From: Candidatus Spongiisociaceae bacterium
Lineage (GTDB): Bacteria > Actinomycetota > Acidimicrobiia > Spongiisociales > Spongiisociaceae
DNA: 64,000 bases
Direction of reading: 5' to 3'
Assembly: GCA_965202665.1 (NCBI GenBank)
Contig: OZ241841.1
Span: 32,001 to 96,000, forward strand
A program made the position numbers and the translations under genes. Of this stretch, positions 159 through 10,603 are shown piece by piece (within the stretch, counting starts at the first letter, position 1; each line of letters opens with the position of its first letter). The notes beneath the pieces were generated by a model. It did not search any database. It saw only the letters and a list, made by a program, of their open reading frames with translations, and had not been told where the DNA came from.

Positions 159-797
159 ATGAGCAACTCATGCCCCGCCCATTCCATCGCGGACAGCCTG
201 CGCAGGCGGCGGATCCTCTACGTCTGCCATATGACCCCCTGCCATCGCCTGCCCTCCATATTCGCCTCCGGGGGGCTGCTCTCGCTGGCCGCCCGCCGGG
301 TGAGCGGCATCGCCGAACCGGAACAGCCGCACGACTGGGGCGGGGAAGGCAAACGGGAGGCCTTGGCCGGATACGTAGTGTGCGGTTTCGAAACCCCCAA
401 GTGGATGTGCCGCAAACACCCCGAAGAGCTGGCCCTCGTCCTCCTAGACGCCCACGCGGTGTGCTGCGGGGAAAGCGTCCTCTTCTGCCCCGGCAACTCC
501 GCCGACGACCGCTACCCCGCCTCCGATATCGCAAAGATGACCGGCGCAGAACATTTTGACGACTGCTTCAAAAATCGCCATGACCGAGAATCAAAGTTCG
601 GCGAGATATTGGTTCCGGGCCAGGTTCCGGTCGACCTTTTCCGCGGCCTGCTCTTCTGCGACCGGGAGGCGATGGACTACTGGATTCCCAAAATAGAAGG
701 CCTGTTTCCGCACCCGCCGCTTACTGCGGACGTCCGGTACCTTTGGGGATACGCGTTTCCGGTAGACTGGAGCCCCAGCGAAAGGATCCGCCCATGA
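159..797 (+). CDS. darT: DarT-family (DUF4433-like) nucleic-acid ADP-ribosyltransferase toxin
   Basis: Motif order matches DarT: YVCHMT..RLPSIFASGGLLS (cf. YHxTHxxNLxSILxxGLLS), K-R, YV, FCPGNSA (cf. FTxGNAA), GEILVPGQVP (cf. AExLVxxxVP, catalytic Glu). Start moved from TTG87 to ATG159 on promoter evidence. The stop overlaps the next ATG (ATGA). Confidence 0.75.
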   Translation: MSNSCPAHSIADSLRRRRILYVCHMTPCHRLPSIFASGGLLSLAARRVSGIAEPEQPHDWGGEGKREALAGYVVCGFETPKWMCRKHPEELALVLLDAHAVCCGESVLFCPGNSADDRYPASDIAKMTGAEHFDDCFKNRHDRESKFGEILVPGQVPVDLFRGLLFCDREAMDYWIPKIEGLFPHPPLTADVRYLWGYAFPVDWSPSERIRP

Positions 798-2209
798 CCT
801 CACAATACGATCTTTCCTCCTTGCCCGTCGACGGTCCGGACAGTTACGTGTTGCGTATGGACCGCGTGCTGATCGCGGCGGCGGCGGGGGACGCTTTGGG
901 ATGGATGACCGAATCCATCCGCGACGTTGAACAGTTGCGGAACCGGTTCAACACCGACTGGCTGACCTACTACCGAGACTGGAGCAAACCGGAAGGAGGC
1001 GCCCGGAGCTACATTGACCGAATCCGCCGGGGCGACTACTCCGATGACACGCAGCTGACTTTGGCCACCGCCCGGTCGCTACGGGGAGACGGCTCGCTGG
1101 ACGCCGGCTATTTCGCCCATTGGGAACTGCCCGCCTGGCTGGACTATGCACGGGGAGCGGGCTCGGCCACCCTGGCCGCCGCCCGGAACTTCCAACGTAA
1201 TTCGGTTCGCTGGAACCAAAACTTCTACACCTACACTCGCCGTCATCAGACTTTTGACTACCGGGACGCGGGGGGCAACGGTGCGGCGATGCGGGTTGCG
1301 CCCATCGCCTTGGCCAACCTGGCCGACCCGGATCTGATAACCGAGGGGGTGTGGCGCTCGGCGATCACCACCCACGGCCATCCGCGGGCGGTGTTGGGGG
1401 CTTTGCTCTACGCACACGCCTTGCAACTCTGCTTCATCGGCCAAAAGTCGCTTTCCAAATCGGATCTGGTCGAAGAGCTGGCCGGACGGTTGGAGCGAAC
1501 CGACCCGCCCCCGACTCCGGAGTTCGATGAATGGGTGGCCGTATGGAACCGGGGCGCAGACACATCTTTCGCCAACCTGATGGAAAAAGTCGCCCAGGAG
1601 ACGGCAGCCGACCTCATTCACTTGGCGGAGCTTTCCTCGGACGCAACGACCACCCGCCGTTTCATGGAAGCGCTGGGATGCTTCCGACCGGAGACGAAAG
1701 GCTCGGGAACGGGCACCGTTCTAGCCGCGTTGGCCATAGCGTTGCAGGAGCGGGACGACGTCCACCAGGCCATCCCTTGGACGATCAATCAGCTGGGTTC
1801 CGACACCGACACCATCGGTTCCTTCGTAGGAGGGTTGTGCGGAGCCATCTACGGAACGGATTTCGCCCAATCCGTCTGGTTCTACGAACTGCAGGATCAC
1901 GACGGGTTGTCAATGGCCGCCAACCGGATGGGGCGCATCGTCCGCCGGGAGGAGGCAGCGGAGCCTTGTCCCGCTTCAAACCAAACTCATTGGAAAGAAA
2001 ACCTCCCCAAAGCGCCGGACAGCATCCGTTCCGGTGTTCTGTCCGAAGGAGACTGGGTGTTTCATCACCTTTTCGGCCATGGCAAGATCGACGAAATTGA
2101 AACCCAACCTTTCAGAAACGACTCCGACGGCCAAGTTCGCTTAGTGCGCGCCGACTTCAACAACGGCCAAAGTTGCAAGTTCCGCAGTTTACAATCTCTT
2201 CAGATTTAA
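794..2209 (+). CDS. ADP-ribosylglycohydrolase (ARH) paralog 1 with C-terminal Tudor/SH3-like domain
   Basis: AAAGDALG, YSDDTQLT, GGNGAAMRVAP, TTHGHP and DTDTIG motifs intact. C-terminal GDWVFHHLFGHGKIDEIE...VRADF. ATG794 overlaps the darT stop. Confidence 0.9.
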   Translation: MTSQYDLSSLPVDGPDSYVLRMDRVLIAAAAGDALGWMTESIRDVEQLRNRFNTDWLTYYRDWSKPEGGARSYIDRIRRGDYSDDTQLTLATARSLRGDGSLDAGYFAHWELPAWLDYARGAGSATLAAARNFQRNSVRWNQNFYTYTRRHQTFDYRDAGGNGAAMRVAPIALANLADPDLITEGVWRSAITTHGHPRAVLGALLYAHALQLCFIGQKSLSKSDLVEELAGRLERTDPPPTPEFDEWVAVWNRGADTSFANLMEKVAQETAADLIHLAELSSDATTTRRFMEALGCFRPETKGSGTGTVLAALAIALQERDDVHQAIPWTINQLGSDTDTIGSFVGGLCGAIYGTDFAQSVWFYELQDHDGLSMAANRMGRIVRREEAAEPCPASNQTHWKENLPKAPDSIRSGVLSEGDWVFHHLFGHGKIDEIETQPFRNDSDGQVRLVRADFNNGQSCKFRSLQSLQI

Positions 2210-2289
2210 TGGAGGAGTAGGGGGTTAGGACCGCGGCACTGGACCGGAGTGGCGGCCCGCCCCGTCGCCGAGGCTGGCACCGCGTCGAA

Positions 2290-2409
2290 TGGATGATGTC
2301 TTTTTTGCCGAAAACAGCCCTCGGCCAGCCGATCACGGTCACAACCCGGGGACTGTGGGATTTCGGATTTCCGCTAAACTGGCTTCCCAATGAAAGGGCA
2401 CGGCTATGA
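2290..2409 (+). pseudogene. Remnant of a second darT copy: upstream flank fused to the last ~24 codons
   Basis: 2326-2409 reads QPITVTTRGLWDFGFPLNWLPNERARL*, aligning with the darT C-terminus PPLTADVRYLWGYAFPVDWSPSERIRP*, with the same ATGA overlap into the next ARH. 2290-2322 resembles 88-123 upstream of darT. Confidence 0.75.
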
Positions 2410-3833
2410 CCTCGCAATTTGATATCTCCTCGTTGCCCGACGGGGGTCCGGACGGCTTTTACTATCGTTTGGACTGCGTACTGATGGCGGCCGCGGCGGG
2501 TGATGCGCTGGGGTGGATGACCGAATCGGTCCGCGACGTTGAACAGTTGCGTAACCGGTTCGGCACCGACTGGCTGACCTACTACAGGGACTGGAGCAAG
2601 CCGGAGGGAGGCCGACGCGGATACATGGACCGCATCCGCCGGGGCGACTATTCGGACGATACGCAACTGACGTTGGCCACCGCACGGTCGTTGCGCGGGG
2701 ACGGATCGCTGGACGCCGAACATTTCGCCTACCGGGAGTTGCCCGCTTGGTTGGACTACGCGAGAGGAGCCGGGGCGGCCACGCGAGCCGCCGCCCGGGC
2801 CTTTCGGAAACAGTCGGTACGCTGGAACAAAAACTTCTACACCTATACCCGCCGTCACCAAACCTGCGATTACCGGGATGCGGGGGGCAATGGGGTAGCG
2901 ATGCGGGTTGCGCCCATCGCTTTGGCCAACTTGGCCGACCCGGATCTGATAACCGAGGGGGTGTGGCGTTCTGCCATCACCACCCACGGCCACCCGCGGG
3001 CGGTAGCGGGGGCACTGCTCTACGCCCACGCCCTGCGCCTGTGTTTCATGCGCCGCCGTTCTTTGACCAGATCCTATTTGGCCGGGAACCTGACGGAGCT
3101 GTTGGAGGGCGCCGCCCCTCCCGCCGTCCCGGAGTTCGATGAATGGCTGGCCATATGGAACCGGCGAGCCGACACGACCTTCGGCAACCTGCTGGAAAAA
3201 GTAGCGGGAGAAGCGGCCGCCGACCTCGCCCACTTAGCGGAACTGCCCGCTGATGACGAGCGGTCCACCCGCCGTTACATGGAGGTTCTGGGATGTTTCC
3301 GCCCCGAAACGAAAGGTTCGGGAACCGGCACCGTCCTCGCCGCCCTCGCCATAGCAACCGAAGAAAGGGACGACATCCAGCAGGCACTCCCTTGGACCAT
3401 CAACCAACTGGGTTCCGACACCGACACCATCGGCTCCTTCGTAGGAGGACTATGCGGAGCCGTCCATGGGGTGGACTTTGCGCAAAGCATTTGGTTCTAC
3501 GAACTGCAGGACCATGATGGGATATCGCATGCGTCGCGATGCATAGGACATATAGCCAACCGCCTCCATCCATTCCAAACCGTTTCCGTTCCCCCGCGCA
3601 ACGGAGCCAAAGGCCAACCCCCCTTGTTGACGGAGCGCATAAAAGCGGAGGACCTTGCCGAAGGCCAATGGGTTTTTCACTCCATCTTCCGCGAAGGAAA
3701 AATAGAAAAAATAGAAACCCGCCCCCTGCGCAACCAACCGGACCGCCAAGTCCGACTAGTCCGCGTGTGCTTCGAAAACGGCCAAAGTTGCAAGTTCCGC
3801 AGTTTCGTTCCATCCGGCATTAGCTCGCGCTGA
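2406..3833 (+). CDS. ARH paralog 2 with C-terminal Tudor/SH3-like domain
   Basis: Same ARH motifs, with long stretches identical to paralog 1. C-terminal GQWVFHSIFREGKIEKIE...VRVCF. Confidence 0.9.
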   Translation: MTSQFDISSLPDGGPDGFYYRLDCVLMAAAAGDALGWMTESVRDVEQLRNRFGTDWLTYYRDWSKPEGGRRGYMDRIRRGDYSDDTQLTLATARSLRGDGSLDAEHFAYRELPAWLDYARGAGAATRAAARAFRKQSVRWNKNFYTYTRRHQTCDYRDAGGNGVAMRVAPIALANLADPDLITEGVWRSAITTHGHPRAVAGALLYAHALRLCFMRRRSLTRSYLAGNLTELLEGAAPPAVPEFDEWLAIWNRRADTTFGNLLEKVAGEAAADLAHLAELPADDERSTRRYMEVLGCFRPETKGSGTGTVLAALAIATEERDDIQQALPWTINQLGSDTDTIGSFVGGLCGAVHGVDFAQSIWFYELQDHDGISHASRCIGHIANRLHPFQTVSVPPRNGAKGQPPLLTERIKAEDLAEGQWVFHSIFREGKIEKIETRPLRNQPDRQVRLVRVCFENGQSCKFRSFVPSGISSR

Positions 3834-5206
3834 TGACATCGGAGCGGATTTCCGAGCACTTGGAAAGCGCGCTGTTCGCCAACGCCTGCGGGGACGCGCT
3901 GGGGTGGATTACGGAAATGAATCAAGACCCCTCCAGGTTGTGGCGGATCATTGGCTCCAGCTGGCTAACCGACTTTGCGGACTGGTCGAAATCCGCTGGC
4001 GCGGGCGGCGGGATCAGGTACGTGGACATGGTGCGCGCAGGTGAATATTCCGACGACACGCAGTTGACTTTGGCCATCTTCCGTTCTTTGCGGGGCGACG
4101 GCTCCTTCGATGGCGACCATTTCACCGGCCGGGAGCTGGCGAAGTATCTGGATTACGCACGCGGGGCCGGGGCGGCCACGGTAGGGGCTTGCCTGGCCTG
4201 CCGGAGACGGCCGACTAGGTGGAATGACAACTTTTTCACCTACGGATACCGCGGCCGGCGGGATTACCGGAGCGGAGGCGGCAACGGGGCGGCGATGAGA
4301 GTGTCGCCGGTCGCTTTGGCGAACTTGCGCAACCCGGAGCAACTGGAGGACGGCGTGTGGCGGTCGTCGGTGGCGACGCACGGCCATCCCACCGCCGTCT
4401 TGGGTTCCCTGCTCTTCGCCCACGCCCTGCGCCTGTGCCTGGAAAGACGAGAGCCCGTGCCGCGCTCCGAACTGGTCGGAGAGTTGATTCCGGTTATCGC
4501 CGGGGCCGCTCCTCCGCCGACCCCGGAGTTTGAACATTGGGTGGACGTTTGGAACCGGTCTTACGATCTGGTCTGGGACGAACTCCCTTTTGAGGAACTG
4601 TTGGATAAGCGAGCCGGTGAAGTGGTCGGTCAACTGGAACAGCTGGCGGAGATTCCTTCTGAACCGGAGGCCACCCGCGCCTTTATGGAGGACGTGGGCT
4701 GTTTCAGCGGGGGAACCTTCGGCTCCGGAACCGGCACCACTTTGGCGGCCCTGGCTATCTACCTGCAAGACCGGAACGATCCCCGGTCGGCCATCCCATG
4801 GGCAGTCAACCAGCTGGGTTCCGACACGGACAGCATCGCCGGGTTCGTGGGAGGAATGTGCGGAGCGTCTTACGGCCGGGAGGCCATCCCGTCTCACTGG
4901 TTCCACCAGGTGCAGGACTCCCAGTACCTGGCCTATGCGGCCCGTTGCCTGGAGGGGGTAATCAACGGCCGTACCAACGCCGGCGACAATTTCCTTCCCG
5001 AACCAACGGATGAGGACGCCCTCCTGCCGCAACTGCCCGAATGTTTGGAATCACACGATCTCGGCGCGGGAGACCGGGTTTTCCACCCCATTTTGGGAAC
5101 CGGGGAAATAGAAGATGTAGAAACCCAATACGACAATCGCGTCCGTCTTACCAGAGTAACCTTCGATCAAGGCCAAAGCTGCAAATTCAAATACGTGCTT
5201 CCCTAA
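3833..5206 (+). CDS. ARH paralog 3 (more divergent) with C-terminal Tudor/SH3-like domain
   Basis: GDALG, YSDDTQLT, GGNGAAMRVSP, ATHGHP, DTDSIAG. C-terminal GDRVFHPILGTGEIEDVE...TRVTF. TGATG coupling to paralog 2. Confidence 0.9.
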   Translation: MTSERISEHLESALFANACGDALGWITEMNQDPSRLWRIIGSSWLTDFADWSKSAGAGGGIRYVDMVRAGEYSDDTQLTLAIFRSLRGDGSFDGDHFTGRELAKYLDYARGAGAATVGACLACRRRPTRWNDNFFTYGYRGRRDYRSGGGNGAAMRVSPVALANLRNPEQLEDGVWRSSVATHGHPTAVLGSLLFAHALRLCLERREPVPRSELVGELIPVIAGAAPPPTPEFEHWVDVWNRSYDLVWDELPFEELLDKRAGEVVGQLEQLAEIPSEPEATRAFMEDVGCFSGGTFGSGTGTTLAALAIYLQDRNDPRSAIPWAVNQLGSDTDSIAGFVGGMCGASYGREAIPSHWFHQVQDSQYLAYAARCLEGVINGRTNAGDNFLPEPTDEDALLPQLPECLESHDLGAGDRVFHPILGTGEIEDVETQYDNRVRLTRVTFDQGQSCKFKYVLP

Positions 5207-5210
5207 AGGT

Positions 5211-8054
5211 TCAGGCTCCAGCATCCAGGCGGGCAATCAGTCGGGGAACGTCCTGCTCAAATACCAGTCCGAAGTTTTCCCATTTGCCCCAGCGACCGTC
5301 CTTGTTGACCGCTTTTAGCCACAAATTCAGATACTGCTGCTTCGCGCTCGCCTCCGCCTCGGTCGCTCCTTTCGTCTCCACAATCAAATTCGTTTCGTCT
5401 TCCCTTAGGCAAGACCTTTCTCCCGCCGGACGCAGGCGAACTACGAAATCCGGATAGTAAGGCACTGACCGCCCTTCGAACACATAATCCACCTTGAAAC
5501 CGATGTGCTCGCGGTCATTTTTAACCCAACCCGCAACGTTTCTATGGCCGGAGAAAATCCTTCCCGCATGCTTTTCCAAACCGGAGTCGTATACGCCGAC
5601 ATTCAGGTGAGTGCGTCCCACGTTGCCGTCTATCAATTCAGGACGGCGACGGGTCACCCATGGACGCATTTCCCTGGTAGATAAAACAGGGCGGTGGGGG
5701 TTTTCGTAGACCCCTTCCATCATATGATATTCTTCCTGAAATAGATGGGGGCGAAGGTGTCGCACTATCTGTCCCAGCCCGGCCTTGATAACCATCTTTT
5801 CAGAAACGCCGTTGCCCACTATTTGCAACATCTCAGGGTTTTTCACAAACTCCAGCATCACCATGGCCAGCTGGCCCCACATGGCGGCACCGCCGTCCGG
5901 CCATCCCTCCCGGCTCCGGTAAAACACCCGGGCCGCATCGAAGGCCAAAGTTTGCAACCGTATCTCCTCCAGTTTGTCGCGTAGCACCGTCTCATCGGGT
6001 TCGGCGGTAACGTACTCCAATGTTTTAGCCATTCCCGCTTCGGTAAAAACCTCATCCGCCCGCAACAGAAGGGGCTCTACATCTTCCCAGTCTATTTTGA
6101 GTGTCTGACGAGGCATGGTTTCCACTCGCAACAGAGCGGGCCAGGCGACCTCGAACTTGCGGTTTTTCTCCACGGTGTATACGTCCACCGGTGGATGCGT
6201 AATCCTCTCACGGGCGGTGGACGTCTCCTTTTCGGCTAGCAACAAGGTGAATGGAACTCCGAAAATGCGCACATATTCGGGTTCAAAGGATCCGTCTGCG
6301 TTCAACTCGTAGGAAGTGCGGCGCAAACCGCGTCCGATTACCTGCTCGCATAAGAGTTGGCTTGTGAAAGCCCTCAACCCCATAATGTGCGTGACCGTTT
6401 TGGCATCCCACCCTTCGGAAATCATATTCACGGCGATGACATGCCTGATTTGCCCGCCGGGGGAACCTTCCACCCCCACGGTTTTGGCAATTTCCCGTAG
6501 CCGCTCCGCCTGTTCCCCCGCTTTACCGGCAACCCGCTCCCCGGCCTCTAATTTTTTCACCGCCTTGATGGTCGTACTGTCATAGTGGAGCGTGGTTTCC
6601 TTATCGATCAATTCGTCATTAACCAGCTTCAAATCAACAAATAGCCTTTTCACACGCTCCGCCGTCTCCGTTCTGTTGCAGATGCTGACCATAACCGGCG
6701 GAACCGATGAACTCTGCTCTCCCCATTCCTTGAGCGTGTCCGACCATGATCCGGCCAGCAGTTGGTATGCCGACACCACGAGCGGTGGCAAGGGCTCTCC
6801 TATCATATTTTTCCCGCCGCGTAAGTTTTCTTTGACGCCTTCTTCTTCATATAGATGAAACAGTTTGCTGCGCCTCTCCTCCCCTCCTGCTTCCAATCCA
6901 GGGAGCGGTTCGTCGTCCGGCGTGGTCAGGTTATCCTCGGCGGCGATACGCGGCGTCTTTACCAGCCCTGATTCGATTGCGTCGGATAAGCCGAAGTCGG
7001 ACACCACCCATGGGAACAGCCGCTCCTCCCGTTGCGTTTTCTTCCCAGGAGGAGGAAACGGGGTGGCGGTGAAATCGTAGCAACGAACAAGTTTTCCCAT
7101 CTTGTGGAGCCTGTCCAAACCCTGAATCCACACCGTGGCCGTTTCTCGATCCTCTTTTTTGTACTCGGTGAGTTTGGCATTCGACGGCACCCGCCAGGCG
7201 TGATGAGCCTCGTCGTTGAACACCAGAAACGGCTCCGTCAAATCCAGCATGCGGTTGAAAACCCGAGTTGCGAAGGCGCGATCCGTTTCCGGATCCAGTT
7301 TTACGACGCCCCGGCCCGACTCGGTTTGCGGGGCCAGTTTATGCCAGTTGGTTATCAGCAACTTCACCCGATTGAGTTTCTGCCGGAAACCGCCGCCGGG
7401 CGGCACCAGGGCAAAAAGGTCGTAATAATTGTCAGTATGGGAGGGTAGCAAAACCTGTAACCGATCCCGTACCGTAAGATTGGGCGCCAGAATCAGAAAA
7501 TTCTTCACCCAGCCGCGCTCTCTACGTCGCGCTTTATCGGCCCCGGCATAGTTCAAAGATTGCCAGGCAATCAACATTGCCATCAGCACCGTTTTGCCGG
7601 TTCCGGTGGCCATCTTGGCGCACCATCTTTCCAGCGAACCCCCATCTCCGGTAATCCGTTGCGCAACACTCCGGCCGGTGGCGTCTTCTGTGAGAAAAAT
7701 GATAGTCTCGGCCGCTTCCAGTTGCGCGTAAAACAACTTGTGTTCCCGCTCAGGATTTTCCCAATGTTCCAACAGCCGTCTAGTAATAGAGGTAAGACCG
7801 GGACGGCCTCGGCTTCGCCAGCGGATAAGGGCCTCCCTAATGTCATTAACCAACTGCAGAGGCTCTTCTATAAAATCGCCACTTCGAGGTTCGCGCAACT
7901 GGTAGGTGGCGTATCGCCGATGATGCACCAGTTCGAACTCTTTGGTCTCCCGGTTGAGTTTCCAATGCTTATCCGGACAGCTGAACGGCCTGTTGATAAT
8001 CAAATCTCCATCCACCCCCAACACCGTTCTGTCCATGGTATCAGTACCCATCAC
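5211..8054 (-). CDS. res: Type III restriction endonuclease subunit (SF2 helicase + PD-(D/E)xK nuclease)
   Basis: KMATGTGKT Walker A, DEAHH, EGWD, EQVIGRGLR, C-terminal YPDF...IVETKG. Coupled to mod. Confidence 0.9.
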   Translation of the reverse strand: MMGTDTMDRTVLGVDGDLIINRPFSCPDKHWKLNRETKEFELVHHRRYATYQLREPRSGDFIEEPLQLVNDIREALIRWRSRGRPGLTSITRRLLEHWENPEREHKLFYAQLEAAETIIFLTEDATGRSVAQRITGDGGSLERWCAKMATGTGKTVLMAMLIAWQSLNYAGADKARRRERGWVKNFLILAPNLTVRDRLQVLLPSHTDNYYDLFALVPPGGGFRQKLNRVKLLITNWHKLAPQTESGRGVVKLDPETDRAFATRVFNRMLDLTEPFLVFNDEAHHAWRVPSNAKLTEYKKEDRETATVWIQGLDRLHKMGKLVRCYDFTATPFPPPGKKTQREERLFPWVVSDFGLSDAIESGLVKTPRIAAEDNLTTPDDEPLPGLEAGGEERRSKLFHLYEEEGVKENLRGGKNMIGEPLPPLVVSAYQLLAGSWSDTLKEWGEQSSSVPPVMVSICNRTETAERVKRLFVDLKLVNDELIDKETTLHYDSTTIKAVKKLEAGERVAGKAGEQAERLREIAKTVGVEGSPGGQIRHVIAVNMISEGWDAKTVTHIMGLRAFTSQLLCEQVIGRGLRRTSYELNADGSFEPEYVRIFGVPFTLLLAEKETSTARERITHPPVDVYTVEKNRKFEVAWPALLRVETMPRQTLKIDWEDVEPLLLRADEVFTEAGMAKTLEYVTAEPDETVLRDKLEEIRLQTLAFDAARVFYRSREGWPDGGAAMWGQLAMVMLEFVKNPEMLQIVGNGVSEKMVIKAGLGQIVRHLRPHLFQEEYHMMEGVYENPHRPVLSTREMRPWVTRRRPELIDGNVGRTHLNVGVYDSGLEKHAGRIFSGHRNVAGWVKNDREHIGFKVDYVFEGRSVPYYPDFVVRLRPAGERSCLREDETNLIVETKGATEAEASAKQQYLNLWLKAVNKDGRWGKWENFGLVFEQDVPRLIARLDAGA

Positions 8055-10603
8055 TCCTCCTGCCCCACTTGTTTGGACTCTGGCAGAGGTATAACCACCA
8101 TCGATTCCACCCCGCGCCGATCAACGATTTTAACCGCCACCCGCCGATACTGACCCGCCTCAAAGGGAAGGCTTATATCCCCGTGGTACCATTCCAGAAG
8201 ATCCTCATCTATCGTCGCGCCTAGTGTCTTAGCTAGACTTCCCCAACCGTCCTTAGGACTTTGTGCGTTCGGGAAAAATATCTGGGAGGGGAACAGACTC
8301 TTTCCGTCGTAGTTGGAATCCAAAGACCACAAGGCGACCTCTTCCGCTCCGCTTGGTATAACCTTATTTGATTGATGATCATAGTAATCGAAACCAATAA
8401 TCTTTACTTGCCAAATGTCTTCACCTGTCTCCTCAATGTCAATATCAGGCTGGCCTACCAACCAAAAGACATCATCGCCAGGTTGGGCACCCTTCAAATC
8501 TGTAACAAGCAAATCAGCGTCGATAACAGCACGAACTAGATCCACCCCAGGCCAACTTTTTCGGCCTAGCAACTCGGATGCCGCCGTATCGAACCCGAAG
8601 GCTGCGAACAGCACCATCTCCGGACGTGGAACAAGTGATTGGGCTTCTTCTATAGCCTGCTCCACCTGAAAGCCCGATAAAGGCGCATAGGGCGATCCAA
8701 ACACTACAACGCACACCTTTCCTTCTTCCAATACCCCGGTGGCATGTATCCATCGGCCGCCAGCGTGTTCTGCTAGTTCATCAAAACGGATTTTGCCGTT
8801 ACGGACGGTGCGCACCCCGGAACGACGCATCTGCTCCAACCAATCTCGCCAATCATCCATTCCTTCCACATCGGCCACTACCTCCCCCCGGCTAGATGGA
8901 CCATTTTCGGACAACGGCAACACCGGATGCGGAGCATACGGAGCTGGCAACGCCTCTATAGTAAACCACCCCGTAACCCGTCGCTTACGGGATATCCTTC
9001 GTGGACGGTCTACCAAGTCGATGGTTTCCGAATCTAAATCGTATGCTAAGGTTTTAGCAGTAACCTTCGGGCAGGTCTTATATATGAACCCACTAGCCGG
9101 GCTACTCCCATCCCTCAGCTCATAATATGGGTAAACCGCGGTAAGTAACCGCTTTCTTGCTATAGTTAAAGCCACTCTGCTAGTGTCAATGGTAATCCAA
9201 CGGCGACCCCACTGCTCGGCTACATACGCGGTGGTTCCGCTCCCGCAGGTCGGATCAAGCACCAAATCACCTGGATCCGATGTCATAAGCATGCAGCGCT
9301 CTACAGCAGTAGTTGCAGTTTGGACAACATATATCTTACCAAAAGGACGTATCTGTTTCCACCATATATTATGTAGCCTGCTTCCTGGCCAATCCTCCTC
9401 GTATTTCTTATACATTAGTTGTTTTGATTTACCCGCCTTGTCACACAGCCTATTTAACTCTGCAAGATTATCCATACCTTCTTTTGATACACTCCAATGC
9501 ATATTAGGGGGACAATAAAATATTTTACCGCTCCATTTATAAGGTTCGGAACGGTTCTGGACATAGCCTTGAGATGTTAATAGGCGACGTGCATAAAGAC
9601 GTATCTTTTCCATATTATCAGGATTCTCTCTTTCTCTTTTAGATAATTCGCGTGTTGTTCCATCCAACTCTTCACCCATAACCCAAGATCCGAAATGTTT
9701 AACAACGTCTTCTCTAGTTCGCTCACCAAACAATTGGCGAAATTTAATTTTGGTTTTATCTTTAGCATACCAAAGCAGATAGTTGGCGGCATTGGGCAAC
9801 AGAGTAGAAGATCCCCCTCCCGAAGTAGCATATGTAATCAGCTCCACTCGGTTCTCAGCTCCAAATATTTCATCCAACAGCAAGCCCATCCGCATAACAT
9901 TTTCCGAACCGATCTGGACAAAAACAGACCCGCTATCCTTTAGCAGTTCCCGACATAGTAGTAATCTATCTCGCATATAAGACAAGTATGAATGAATTTC
10001 TTTTCGCCAAGTGTCCCGGAACGCCTGTACCATCTCCGGTTCCCTTGACACTCCAGTCTTGGTCTCACCTACATTCAAATTGTCCGTTACAATCTGCCAA
10101 TTCCCTCCATATTTTATACCGTAAGGTGGGTCAAAGTAAATAGTTTGAACTTGTCCGCCCATGCCCTCTTTCTCTAATAGCGATGCCATTACCAGCAGGC
10201 TGTCGCCTGCGATCATCCGATTTCGCCAACCTACCTCGTGCTGGTAAAACTCTACCGATTCCCGACCAGTCAGTTGGCCAGGATCAAATAGCGGGGGTTG
10301 CCCCCCCCCCCCCCGCGCCTCTTCCGCCCTTATGGCATCCAGAACGCTCAACGGCTCTATGCGCTCATGGACATGCAAATCCCGGACGTCCACTTCCAAA
10401 ATTCGGTTCTCGCGCTTCCCGTGCCATGACAGGAAGGGGTCGGTGCGGTCATCGTGTTCCCAAACCCGCGTCTCCGCCTCGCCCGGATGATCTAGATGCG
10501 CTTCGGCCTGACCGGCCTGCGGGTTGTTTAGCCTGCTCGCCTTGGAGTGGTCATAGGAGGACGGTCGCCCCCCCCCCCCCGTAGATCTACGTTGATTGGA
10601 CAT
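8051..10603 (-). CDS. mod: Type III R-M DNA methyltransferase subunit (beta-class amino-MTase)
   Basis: DPPY (10121-10132) precedes DPTCGSGTT motif I (~9230-9256). Lies immediately upstream of res. Confidence 0.9.
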   Translation of the reverse strand: MSNQRRSTGGGGRPSSYDHSKASRLNNPQAGQAEAHLDHPGEAETRVWEHDDRTDPFLSWHGKRENRILEVDVRDLHVHERIEPLSVLDAIRAEEARGGGGQPPLFDPGQLTGRESVEFYQHEVGWRNRMIAGDSLLVMASLLEKEGMGGQVQTIYFDPPYGIKYGGNWQIVTDNLNVGETKTGVSREPEMVQAFRDTWRKEIHSYLSYMRDRLLLCRELLKDSGSVFVQIGSENVMRMGLLLDEIFGAENRVELITYATSGGGSSTLLPNAANYLLWYAKDKTKIKFRQLFGERTREDVVKHFGSWVMGEELDGTTRELSKRERENPDNMEKIRLYARRLLTSQGYVQNRSEPYKWSGKIFYCPPNMHWSVSKEGMDNLAELNRLCDKAGKSKQLMYKKYEEDWPGSRLHNIWWKQIRPFGKIYVVQTATTAVERCMLMTSDPGDLVLDPTCGSGTTAYVAEQWGRRWITIDTSRVALTIARKRLLTAVYPYYELRDGSSPASGFIYKTCPKVTAKTLAYDLDSETIDLVDRPRRISRKRRVTGWFTIEALPAPYAPHPVLPLSENGPSSRGEVVADVEGMDDWRDWLEQMRRSGVRTVRNGKIRFDELAEHAGGRWIHATGVLEEGKVCVVVFGSPYAPLSGFQVEQAIEEAQSLVPRPEMVLFAAFGFDTAASELLGRKSWPGVDLVRAVIDADLLVTDLKGAQPGDDVFWLVGQPDIDIEETGEDIWQVKIIGFDYYDHQSNKVIPSGAEEVALWSLDSNYDGKSLFPSQIFFPNAQSPKDGWGSLAKTLGATIDEDLLEWYHGDISLPFEAGQYRRVAVKIVDRRGVESMVVIPLPESKQVGQEE
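10301..10314 (-). repeat. G14 homopolymer within mod (putative phase-variation tract)
   Basis: 14 consecutive C on the + strand, encoding the RGGGGQ segment; currently in frame. Confidence 0.85.
10568..10580 (-). repeat. G13 homopolymer at the 5' end of mod (putative phase-variation tract)
   Basis: 13 consecutive C on the + strand, encoding TGGGGR; currently in frame. Confidence 0.85.

Follow-up and report, generated by a model that had tools for sequence, protein, structure and literature searches.

The stretch analyzed here, hereafter the window, comprises 64,000 nucleotides of contig OZ241841.1 (positions 32,001 to 96,000, forward strand) from Candidatus Spongiisociaceae bacterium. Near its start a gene for a DarT-like ADP-ribosyltransferase of single-stranded DNA (ssDNA) is followed by three ADP-ribosylglycohydrolase (ARH) genes, ARH1, ARH2, and ARH3. 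As an initial annotation of the window had noticed, quoting the residues correctly, all three proteins end in a shared C-terminal module, a beta-barrel of approximately 50 residues. Sequence profiles and a structure model together place this tail in the Tudor/SH3-like fold, as kin to the PcrA/UvrD C-terminal domain (CTD) and the RNA polymerase (RNAP)-interacting domain (RID) of CarD, which agrees with the fold first proposed. Throughout the family the barrel is constant, and it is a hallmark of DarT-linked ARHs. The three ARHs are, by sequence, likely antitoxins of the DarG3 type, and we tentatively favor, at somewhat less than an even chance, the reading that the barrel is a docked domain helping these presumed antitoxins to engage ADP-ribosylated ssDNA, and not an RNAP tether.

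Most comparisons below use a set of 118 sequences, consisting of the three window proteins and 115 of 120 matches (four truncated sequences and one near-identical copy were omitted). An AlphaFold2 model of ARH1 built from this set had a predicted local distance difference test score (pLDDT) of 92 and a predicted template modeling score (pTM) of 0.93. Within the tail, pLDDT was 93-97 and four strands were predicted (residues 421-424, 428-439, 446-455, and 460-468). The residues QSCKF, initially placed after the module, are present but form the fourth strand of the domain itself. Similarly, the HxxFGxG motif ascribed to the tails is intact in ARH1, whereas ARH2 has FREG and ARH3 has ILG. Fold matches of the tail region were EF-P domain I (Z = 5.0), eIF5A (4.9), UvrD-CTD 7egs (4.6), CarD (4.4), and PcrA 5dma (3.9). 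EF-P domain I and eIF5A were best (Z = 4.8-5.0, 54-58 aligned, root mean square deviation (rmsd) 2.1-2.9) and tied with UvrD-CTD (7egs_B: rmsd 2.8, 48 aligned); these Z values are middling as well as tied, and derive from the whole-chain model. Profile alignment of the tail with 31 PcrA Tudor domains gave a probability of 96.3% (E = 1.9e-9) over 41 columns covering strands 1-3, against E = 0.21 for the reversed control. With eight CarD RIDs the probability was 92% over 29 columns (strands 1-2), and with five Mfd RIDs only 8%. Outside matches to the tail in 201 genomes of the class were limited to two PcrA C-termini, and the partial matches from 1.84 billion proteins were, among the matches listed, mostly PcrA-type Tudor repeats.

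Several searches were negative or uninformative. With E values of up to 2 allowed, the PF21196 model matched none of the three tails; a scan of the own genome and of 39 others that carry ARH genes found no more than one match in each genome apart from the own pcrA region, most of them in frames of 700-880 aa. The CarD/Mfd RID model PF02559 scored two of the three tails at 15.9 and 14.0 bits (E = 0.014 and 0.056) against a cut-off of 23, with no match to ARH2. A sequence search of the PDB with the tail profile placed UvrD CTDs at E = 0.06-0.26, level with an unrelated USP8 match. The ESM Atlas search with the tail gave no usable match, the viral fold search yielded ARH cores only, and 50,697 phage genome records contained one weak core match. 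A single-sequence model of the ARH3 tail (pLDDT 65, best fold Z = 3.4) was uninformative and not used.

The barrel is confidently predicted to pack on the catalytic core, because pTM is 0.93 while the core makes up only 82% of the chain. The linker had been described as variable and Pro-rich; it is variable, with 4-5 prolines per 30 residues, but mostly ordered, low confidence being confined to about ten residues (391-400, pLDDT 61). Covariation analysis of 226 sequences (mutual information with average product correction; effective number of sequences 145) stayed in the noise (top z = 4.0) and gave no usable tail-core contact.

The tail profile matches 76 of the 84 ARH open reading frames (ORFs) in 79 GTDB loci and the window flank, and the eight exceptions are truncated at the end of a locus or contig, split, or strongly diverged. 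Among the 150 matches listed from the 1.84 billion proteins, 85 combine ARH core and tail, 43 are short C-terminal fragments, 19 are partial, and 3 carry another N-terminus. No tail match was found in the host's other ARH-like gene, and the match to solved protein-acting ARHs is confined to the core. One tail occurs in an archaeal locus (L072). Family-wide identity is 42.7% in the tail and 46.2% in the core, the linker being the variable part (18.6%). ARH1 and ARH2 share 67% of the tail and 79% of the core, and ARH3 shares 54.5% of the tail and 53-54% of the core with the other two. Of 13 hand-picked close pairs, 6 had a tail more conserved than the core and 7 a less conserved one. The tails are thus not diverged relative to the core, contrary to the initial view of them as diversified. 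These figures also make it very improbable that the tails serve as three diversified sensors that bind phage proteins and thereby release or inactivate the antitoxin. Such sensors would fit three paralogues with different hairpins and a variant ARH2 allele carried by other strains, with 7 non-synonymous and 3 synonymous tail changes among the 29 differences listed and scored; the patch of differences in that allele, however, spans core and linker too, which fits recombination.

The most invariant tail residues are glycines, a Gln, and hydrophobics. This pattern and the confident predicted packing are what one would expect of a mainly structural barrel, stabilizing the ARH fold or an oligomer with no ligand of its own. 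We consider that highly unlikely; protein-acting ARHs fold without a barrel, and exposed polar tail residues are conserved as well (Q438 in 109/118, R/K464 in 92/118). The net charge of the beta2-beta3 hairpin is at least +2 in 88/118. A sister clade of 124 sequences, including an enterobacterial protein, has a domain collinear with the tail (reversed control E = 0.22) that shares G-[LF]-G, G-Q-[TS], and a downstream K/R in 122-124 of the 124. It lacks the HxxFG motif, the shared residues are not the RNAP residues of PcrA, and no similarity between the sister-clade domain and PcrA was found (E = 0.2-0.5).

A DarT-like ORF is present in 73 of the 79 GTDB loci, as detected with a DarT profile built from the upstream genes of 47 of these loci and Pfam-checked on a subset. 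Of the six misses, three lie at contig ends and in three no DarT was found. Because the ARHs travel with a DarT of their own, a role as antitoxins is more likely than the reversal of phage Alt/ModA marks that had initially been suggested. The window DarT keeps the catalytic H24 and E149, both invariant in 50/50 aligned DarT sequences, and its stop codon overlaps the ARH1 start (ATGA). The metal-binding residues D33, E40, S83-D84-D85, and D337-T338-D339 are intact in all three ARHs, and the ARH1 model matches ARH structures at Z = 31-38. A UvrD-like helicase of approximately 500 aa is also found in 39/79 loci. No such gene lies upstream of the window darT, where an rRNA operon occupies the opposite strand; type III restriction-modification genes lie downstream.

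The DarHTG system consists of a UvrD-like helicase, DarT, and the ARH-fold antitoxin DarG3 (PMC13069673, Nucleic Acids Research 2026); it is frequent in Bacteroidota and occurs in under 0.5% of E. coli (PMC13069673). Toxin neutralization and phage defense are demonstrated there for E. coli DarHTG only, with indirect evidence for the antitoxin role (PMC13069673). In our survey, an enterobacterial helicase-DarT-ARH operon (L131) was present in 21 of 5,426 E. coli genomes, and its ARH matched the core profile at E = 4e-81. This operon is likely DS3 (Liu-DS3, DarHTG), since the layout is the same and the frequency fits that reported, and the probable E. coli DarG3 would then sit in the sister clade. 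The window locus is a helicase-less, triplicated relative of DarHTG/DarG3.

The near-obligate linkage to DarT also bears on whether the antitoxin binds its toxin through the barrel, holding DarT as the C-terminal domain of DarG2 does. We regard this as a minority possibility, unlikely but deserving attention. Natural DarT-ARH fusions in both orders speak for it, as does the binding of DarT2 by the second domain of DarG2 (PMC11825919; 10.1101/2023.12.14.571748). That domain, however, mimics acidic ssDNA (10.1101/2023.12.14.571748), whereas the tail hairpin is mostly basic, and DarG1 does not bind its toxin (PMC11825919). Further, the PcrA-target motif DxxTGE occurs in 0/75 DarT ORFs, and the locus has one DarT to three ARHs.

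ARH enzymes are known for erasing ADP-ribose from proteins. Engagement of ADP-ribosylated ssDNA by the barrel is favored because the barrel marks DarT-linked ARHs and is absent from solved protein-acting ARHs, and because it combines predicted packing on the core, an aromatic pocket without the Lys for an acidic partner, and a hairpin that is mostly basic. We hypothesize that DarT would modify ssDNA and block phage replication, as in DarTG/DarHTG, and that the ARHs would take the mark off host DNA. The barrel, with its His/aromatic pocket and usually basic beta2-beta3 hairpin, would extend the substrate-binding surface and in this way make a protein-type ARH fold suitable for DNA. The additional ARH copies, likely products of tandem duplication, would provide dosage or protection against related DarT toxins. 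Several points weigh against this reading. Both DNA binding by the barrel and ARH activity are what we infer. The window tails are not very basic (K+R/D+E of 6/8, 10/6, and 6/7), and in ARH3 most of the hairpin loop is missing. The ARH1 model was read through pLDDT, pTM, and strands, which do not give the distance from barrel to active site. Profile support for homology with the sister-clade domain is weak (E = 1e-4 to 9e-4, probability 23-54%). Finally, the His, aromatic/Leu, and beta3 Phe equivalent to H681 and W684/F705 of PcrA are jointly kept in 99/118 tails, across three separate subclades.

This last count speaks for the initial idea that the barrel docks the eraser on RNAP, or on UvrB, in the manner of PcrA-CTD or the CarD RID, where it would clean transcription-bubble ssDNA. 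In PcrA, each of H681A, W684A, K712A, and L714A severely reduces RNAP binding (PMC5397179), and the RNAP-binding lysines are K712/K727 (PMC5397179, PMC8318588). The H681 equivalent, H424, is kept in 104/118 and the W684 equivalent, F/L427, in 117/118 (H-F, H-F, and H-L in the window tails). At the candidate K712/K727 positions Q459, S460, and C461, however, K/R occurs in 0, 4, and 0 of 118, against 31/31 PcrA tails; in those 31 the His and Phe counts were fixed by the selection pattern, and the Lys count was not. Only in a fourth, shifted register is a basic residue met, K462 (K/R in 85/118). The binding face proposed as PcrA-like is therefore kept in its His/aromatic part, while the RNAP-critical Lys has no counterpart in three plausible registers, and K712A alone severely reduces binding (PMC5397179).

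The comparison with CarD is similarly divided. Its RNAP-contact residues are R25, I27, and R47 (10.1101/2023.03.16.533025), and binding of the CarD type depends much on backbone sheet extension (PMC5397179). The R25 position is a near-invariant Gln in the tails (109/118), the I27 site (position 440) is hydrophobic, and R47 may correspond to K462 in one register, the register of strand 4 being uncertain by about two residues. The initial annotation had read a motif shared by PcrA, CarD, and Mfd as a hint of RNAP docking; the motif names no target, because PcrA-CTD and CarD/Mfd bind different RNAP sites, the former a DxxTGE hairpin away from the site of Mfd (PMC8318588). Strict DxxTGE was absent from the partner proteins as well (0/75 DarT, 0/40 helicase, and 0/84 ARH ORFs). 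TGE hairpins do occur in host ORFs that we take, by sequence recognition, to be RpoB-like and UvrB-like. A tether would further be in line with the profile similarity to PcrA and CarD and with DinX, in which a PcrA-like Tudor is found (PMC6511836). The lack of a PF21196 match, the loss of the His in a Bacteroidota clade (quick tree) and of the whole motif in the sister clade, and the archaeal tail all point the other way. So does the predicted docking on the core, inferred from pTM; the long disordered linker of PcrA has no equivalent that would make a flexible docking tail. With these tests the RNAP tether has become unlikely. An association of His loss with helicase presence (His kept in 0/23 with and 27/36 without) was considered and rejected, since on the quick tree the loss goes with the Bacteroidota clade.

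Many relatives carry extensions of 20-50 residues after the barrel, and in 17 of 44 such His-keeping relatives (homologues P0032-P0122) we found a motif resembling the clamp-binding consensus (10.1101/2025.08.20.671105), against 1.04 expected from 2,000 shuffles (maximum 5). A narrower pattern occurred in 22/132 against 6.6 in shuffles. Both patterns are looser than the consensus, the broader one was chosen after the sequences had been seen, and the kin are not independent. The motif is found in 1/37 of the sister clade and in none of ARH1, ARH2, and ARH3. Where present, the recognizable docking signal of this family thus appears, from sequence, to point to the replisome. One could imagine that the antitoxin took over a PcrA/CarD-type Tudor whose His/aromatic face still rides RNAP/UvrB, and that many relatives added a sliding-clamp motif; we hold this to be decidedly unlikely. 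If it were true, the eraser would be parked at the host transcription and replication machines, host ssDNA would be protected, phage DNA would be exposed to DarT, and self would be told from non-self by eraser localization. The clamp-like motif opens to experiment the question of how a DarTG antitoxin can shield host DNA and not that of the phage. A link to RNAP would be more striking but is less supported than ssDNA engagement. For the latter, DarG3 suggests that one ARH clade turned to DNA; the barrel marks that clade and supplies a short list of residues for testing how an ARH recognizes DNA. The analysis also shows that DarT-ARH pairs exist without a helicase, which the E. coli system needs, and that an antitoxin can be present in three copies.

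The features of the locus are compiled in Table 1. The darT remnant in the 2210-2405 gap ends in the same ATGA overlap as the intact darT, here with ARH2, and ARH1 and ARH2 therefore appear to derive from tandem duplication of a darT-ARH unit. A congeneric genome carries four copies of the ARH gene. Contig pieces from 4 runs of 3 studies cover 30, 30, 30, and 29 of 30 bins of the array; the pieces overlap and none spans the whole array. Because of this overlapping coverage an assembly artefact is unlikely. A promoter/terminator scan of the locus gave results at chance level. Strain differences are dense at the end of ARH2 (window 3380-3882; 27 in 506 bases in one run) and few elsewhere; the patch is likely a recombined allele.

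Table 1. Features of the DarT-ARH locus (window coordinates).
Feature	Position	Strand	Evidence and remarks
DarT-like ssDNA ADP-ribosyltransferase gene (212 aa)	159..797	+	PF14487 E = 1.1e-6, above cut-off; PADLOC DarT E = 1e-5; alignment
ARH1, ADP-ribosylglycohydrolase, 471 aa	794..2209	+	PF03747 E = 4e-46; SDDT/DTD motifs intact
ARH1 Tudor/SH3-like barrel (predicted)	about 2039..2185	+	residues 416-464; helix 407-413 before it
Decayed 3' remnant of second darT copy	2260..2409, left edge approximate	+	tblastn 48% over 25 aa, E = 0.009; DNA alignment; translation
ARH2, 475 aa, 72% identity to ARH1	2406..3833	+	PF03747 E = 8e-47
ARH2 Tudor/SH3-like barrel (predicted)	about 3654..3800	+	tail profile match
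ARH3, 457 aa, 50% identity to ARH1	3833..5206	+	PF03747 E = 9e-45
ARH3 Tudor/SH3-like barrel (predicted)	about 5060..5191	+	beta2-beta3 hairpin 5 residues shorter
Type III restriction-modification res and mod genes	5211..10603	-	defense-island context, outside the module

Variants of the architecture were seen in related loci. The DarT-ARH fusions are L049:3133-5193, L058:5971-8052, and L080:482-3082, and an ARH-SIR2 fusion is L079:5956-9201. In L009, L011, and L042, DarT is fused to a TPR or other domain and has two or three genes between it and the ARH, one of these loci including a weak OmpA-family match; this arrangement is possibly a further defense variant. In the cyanobacterial loci L054, L056, and L066, DarT-ARH is accompanied by a 1,250-aa AAA_11/AAA_12 helicase replacing the UvrD-like one. 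Among 37 full-length DarH-like helicases (L006-L079), 20 end in [DE][DE][LI]PF, which we take to resemble the C-terminal tail of SSB. The idea that the ARH tail replaces a Tudor missing from the partner helicase was rejected; 0/40 helicase ORFs have a Tudor, but helicase-less loci have the tail too. Elsewhere in the host genome, pcrA is directly followed by a gene of approximately 240 aa with three PcrA-type Tudor repeats (G000:C1 about 648056-648914, minus strand; also L081-L083), which accounts for three further PF21196 matches above cut-off and is possibly a competitor or adaptor at the RNAP/UvrB site. In a 648-aa ORF, a long N-terminus rich in Lys/Ala/Pro precedes two CarD units in tandem (G000:C1 1603859-1604605, plus strand; L085:43-1989).

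The pairing of DarT with an ARH antitoxin has been known since 2026. In the literature searched (PMC9503650 and 10.1101/2025.01.08.631726 are further papers cited) we found no description of a Tudor-like domain on DarT-linked ARHs, of helicase-less pairs, or of triplication; the DarHTG supplement could bear on this. The locus resembles DarHTG in having DarT and then an ARH-fold gene, and 39/79 related loci, many of them from Bacteroidota, have the full helicase layout. It differs in that the locus has no helicase gene but a triplicated ARH gene and the decayed remnant of a second darT, and the accessible part of PMC13069673 mentions no Tudor-like domain. DarTG1 (NADAR antitoxin) and DarTG2 (macrodomain antitoxin) likewise consist of a PF14487 toxin followed by an ADP-ribose eraser, whereas the window eraser has the ARH fold. 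DarG2 is also a two-domain antitoxin, but the second domain here is an SH3-like barrel, basic and not DNA-mimicking in most members. With the PcrA/UvrD Tudor (PF21196; PDB 5DMA, 7EGS, 7EGT) the tail shares the profile of strands 1-3, the His, the aromatic, and the beta3 Phe, at Z = 3.8-4.6; unlike it, the tail lacks K712/K727, has G-Q-S-C-K-F as strand 4, a longer beta2-beta3 hairpin and a short ordered linker, and escapes PF21196. The CarD/Mfd RID (PF02559) shares a similar long hairpin, the CarD profile, a Z of 4.4, and weak matches below the Pfam cut-off, and differs in the Gln at the R25 position, an unreliable strand 4 alignment, and the poor Mfd profile. A parallel in architecture is DinX, a different DNA-processing enzyme to which a PcrA-like Tudor is fused (PMC6511836), which is reported to keep the RNAP-binding residues (PMC6511836), whereas the ARH tail keeps only part of them.

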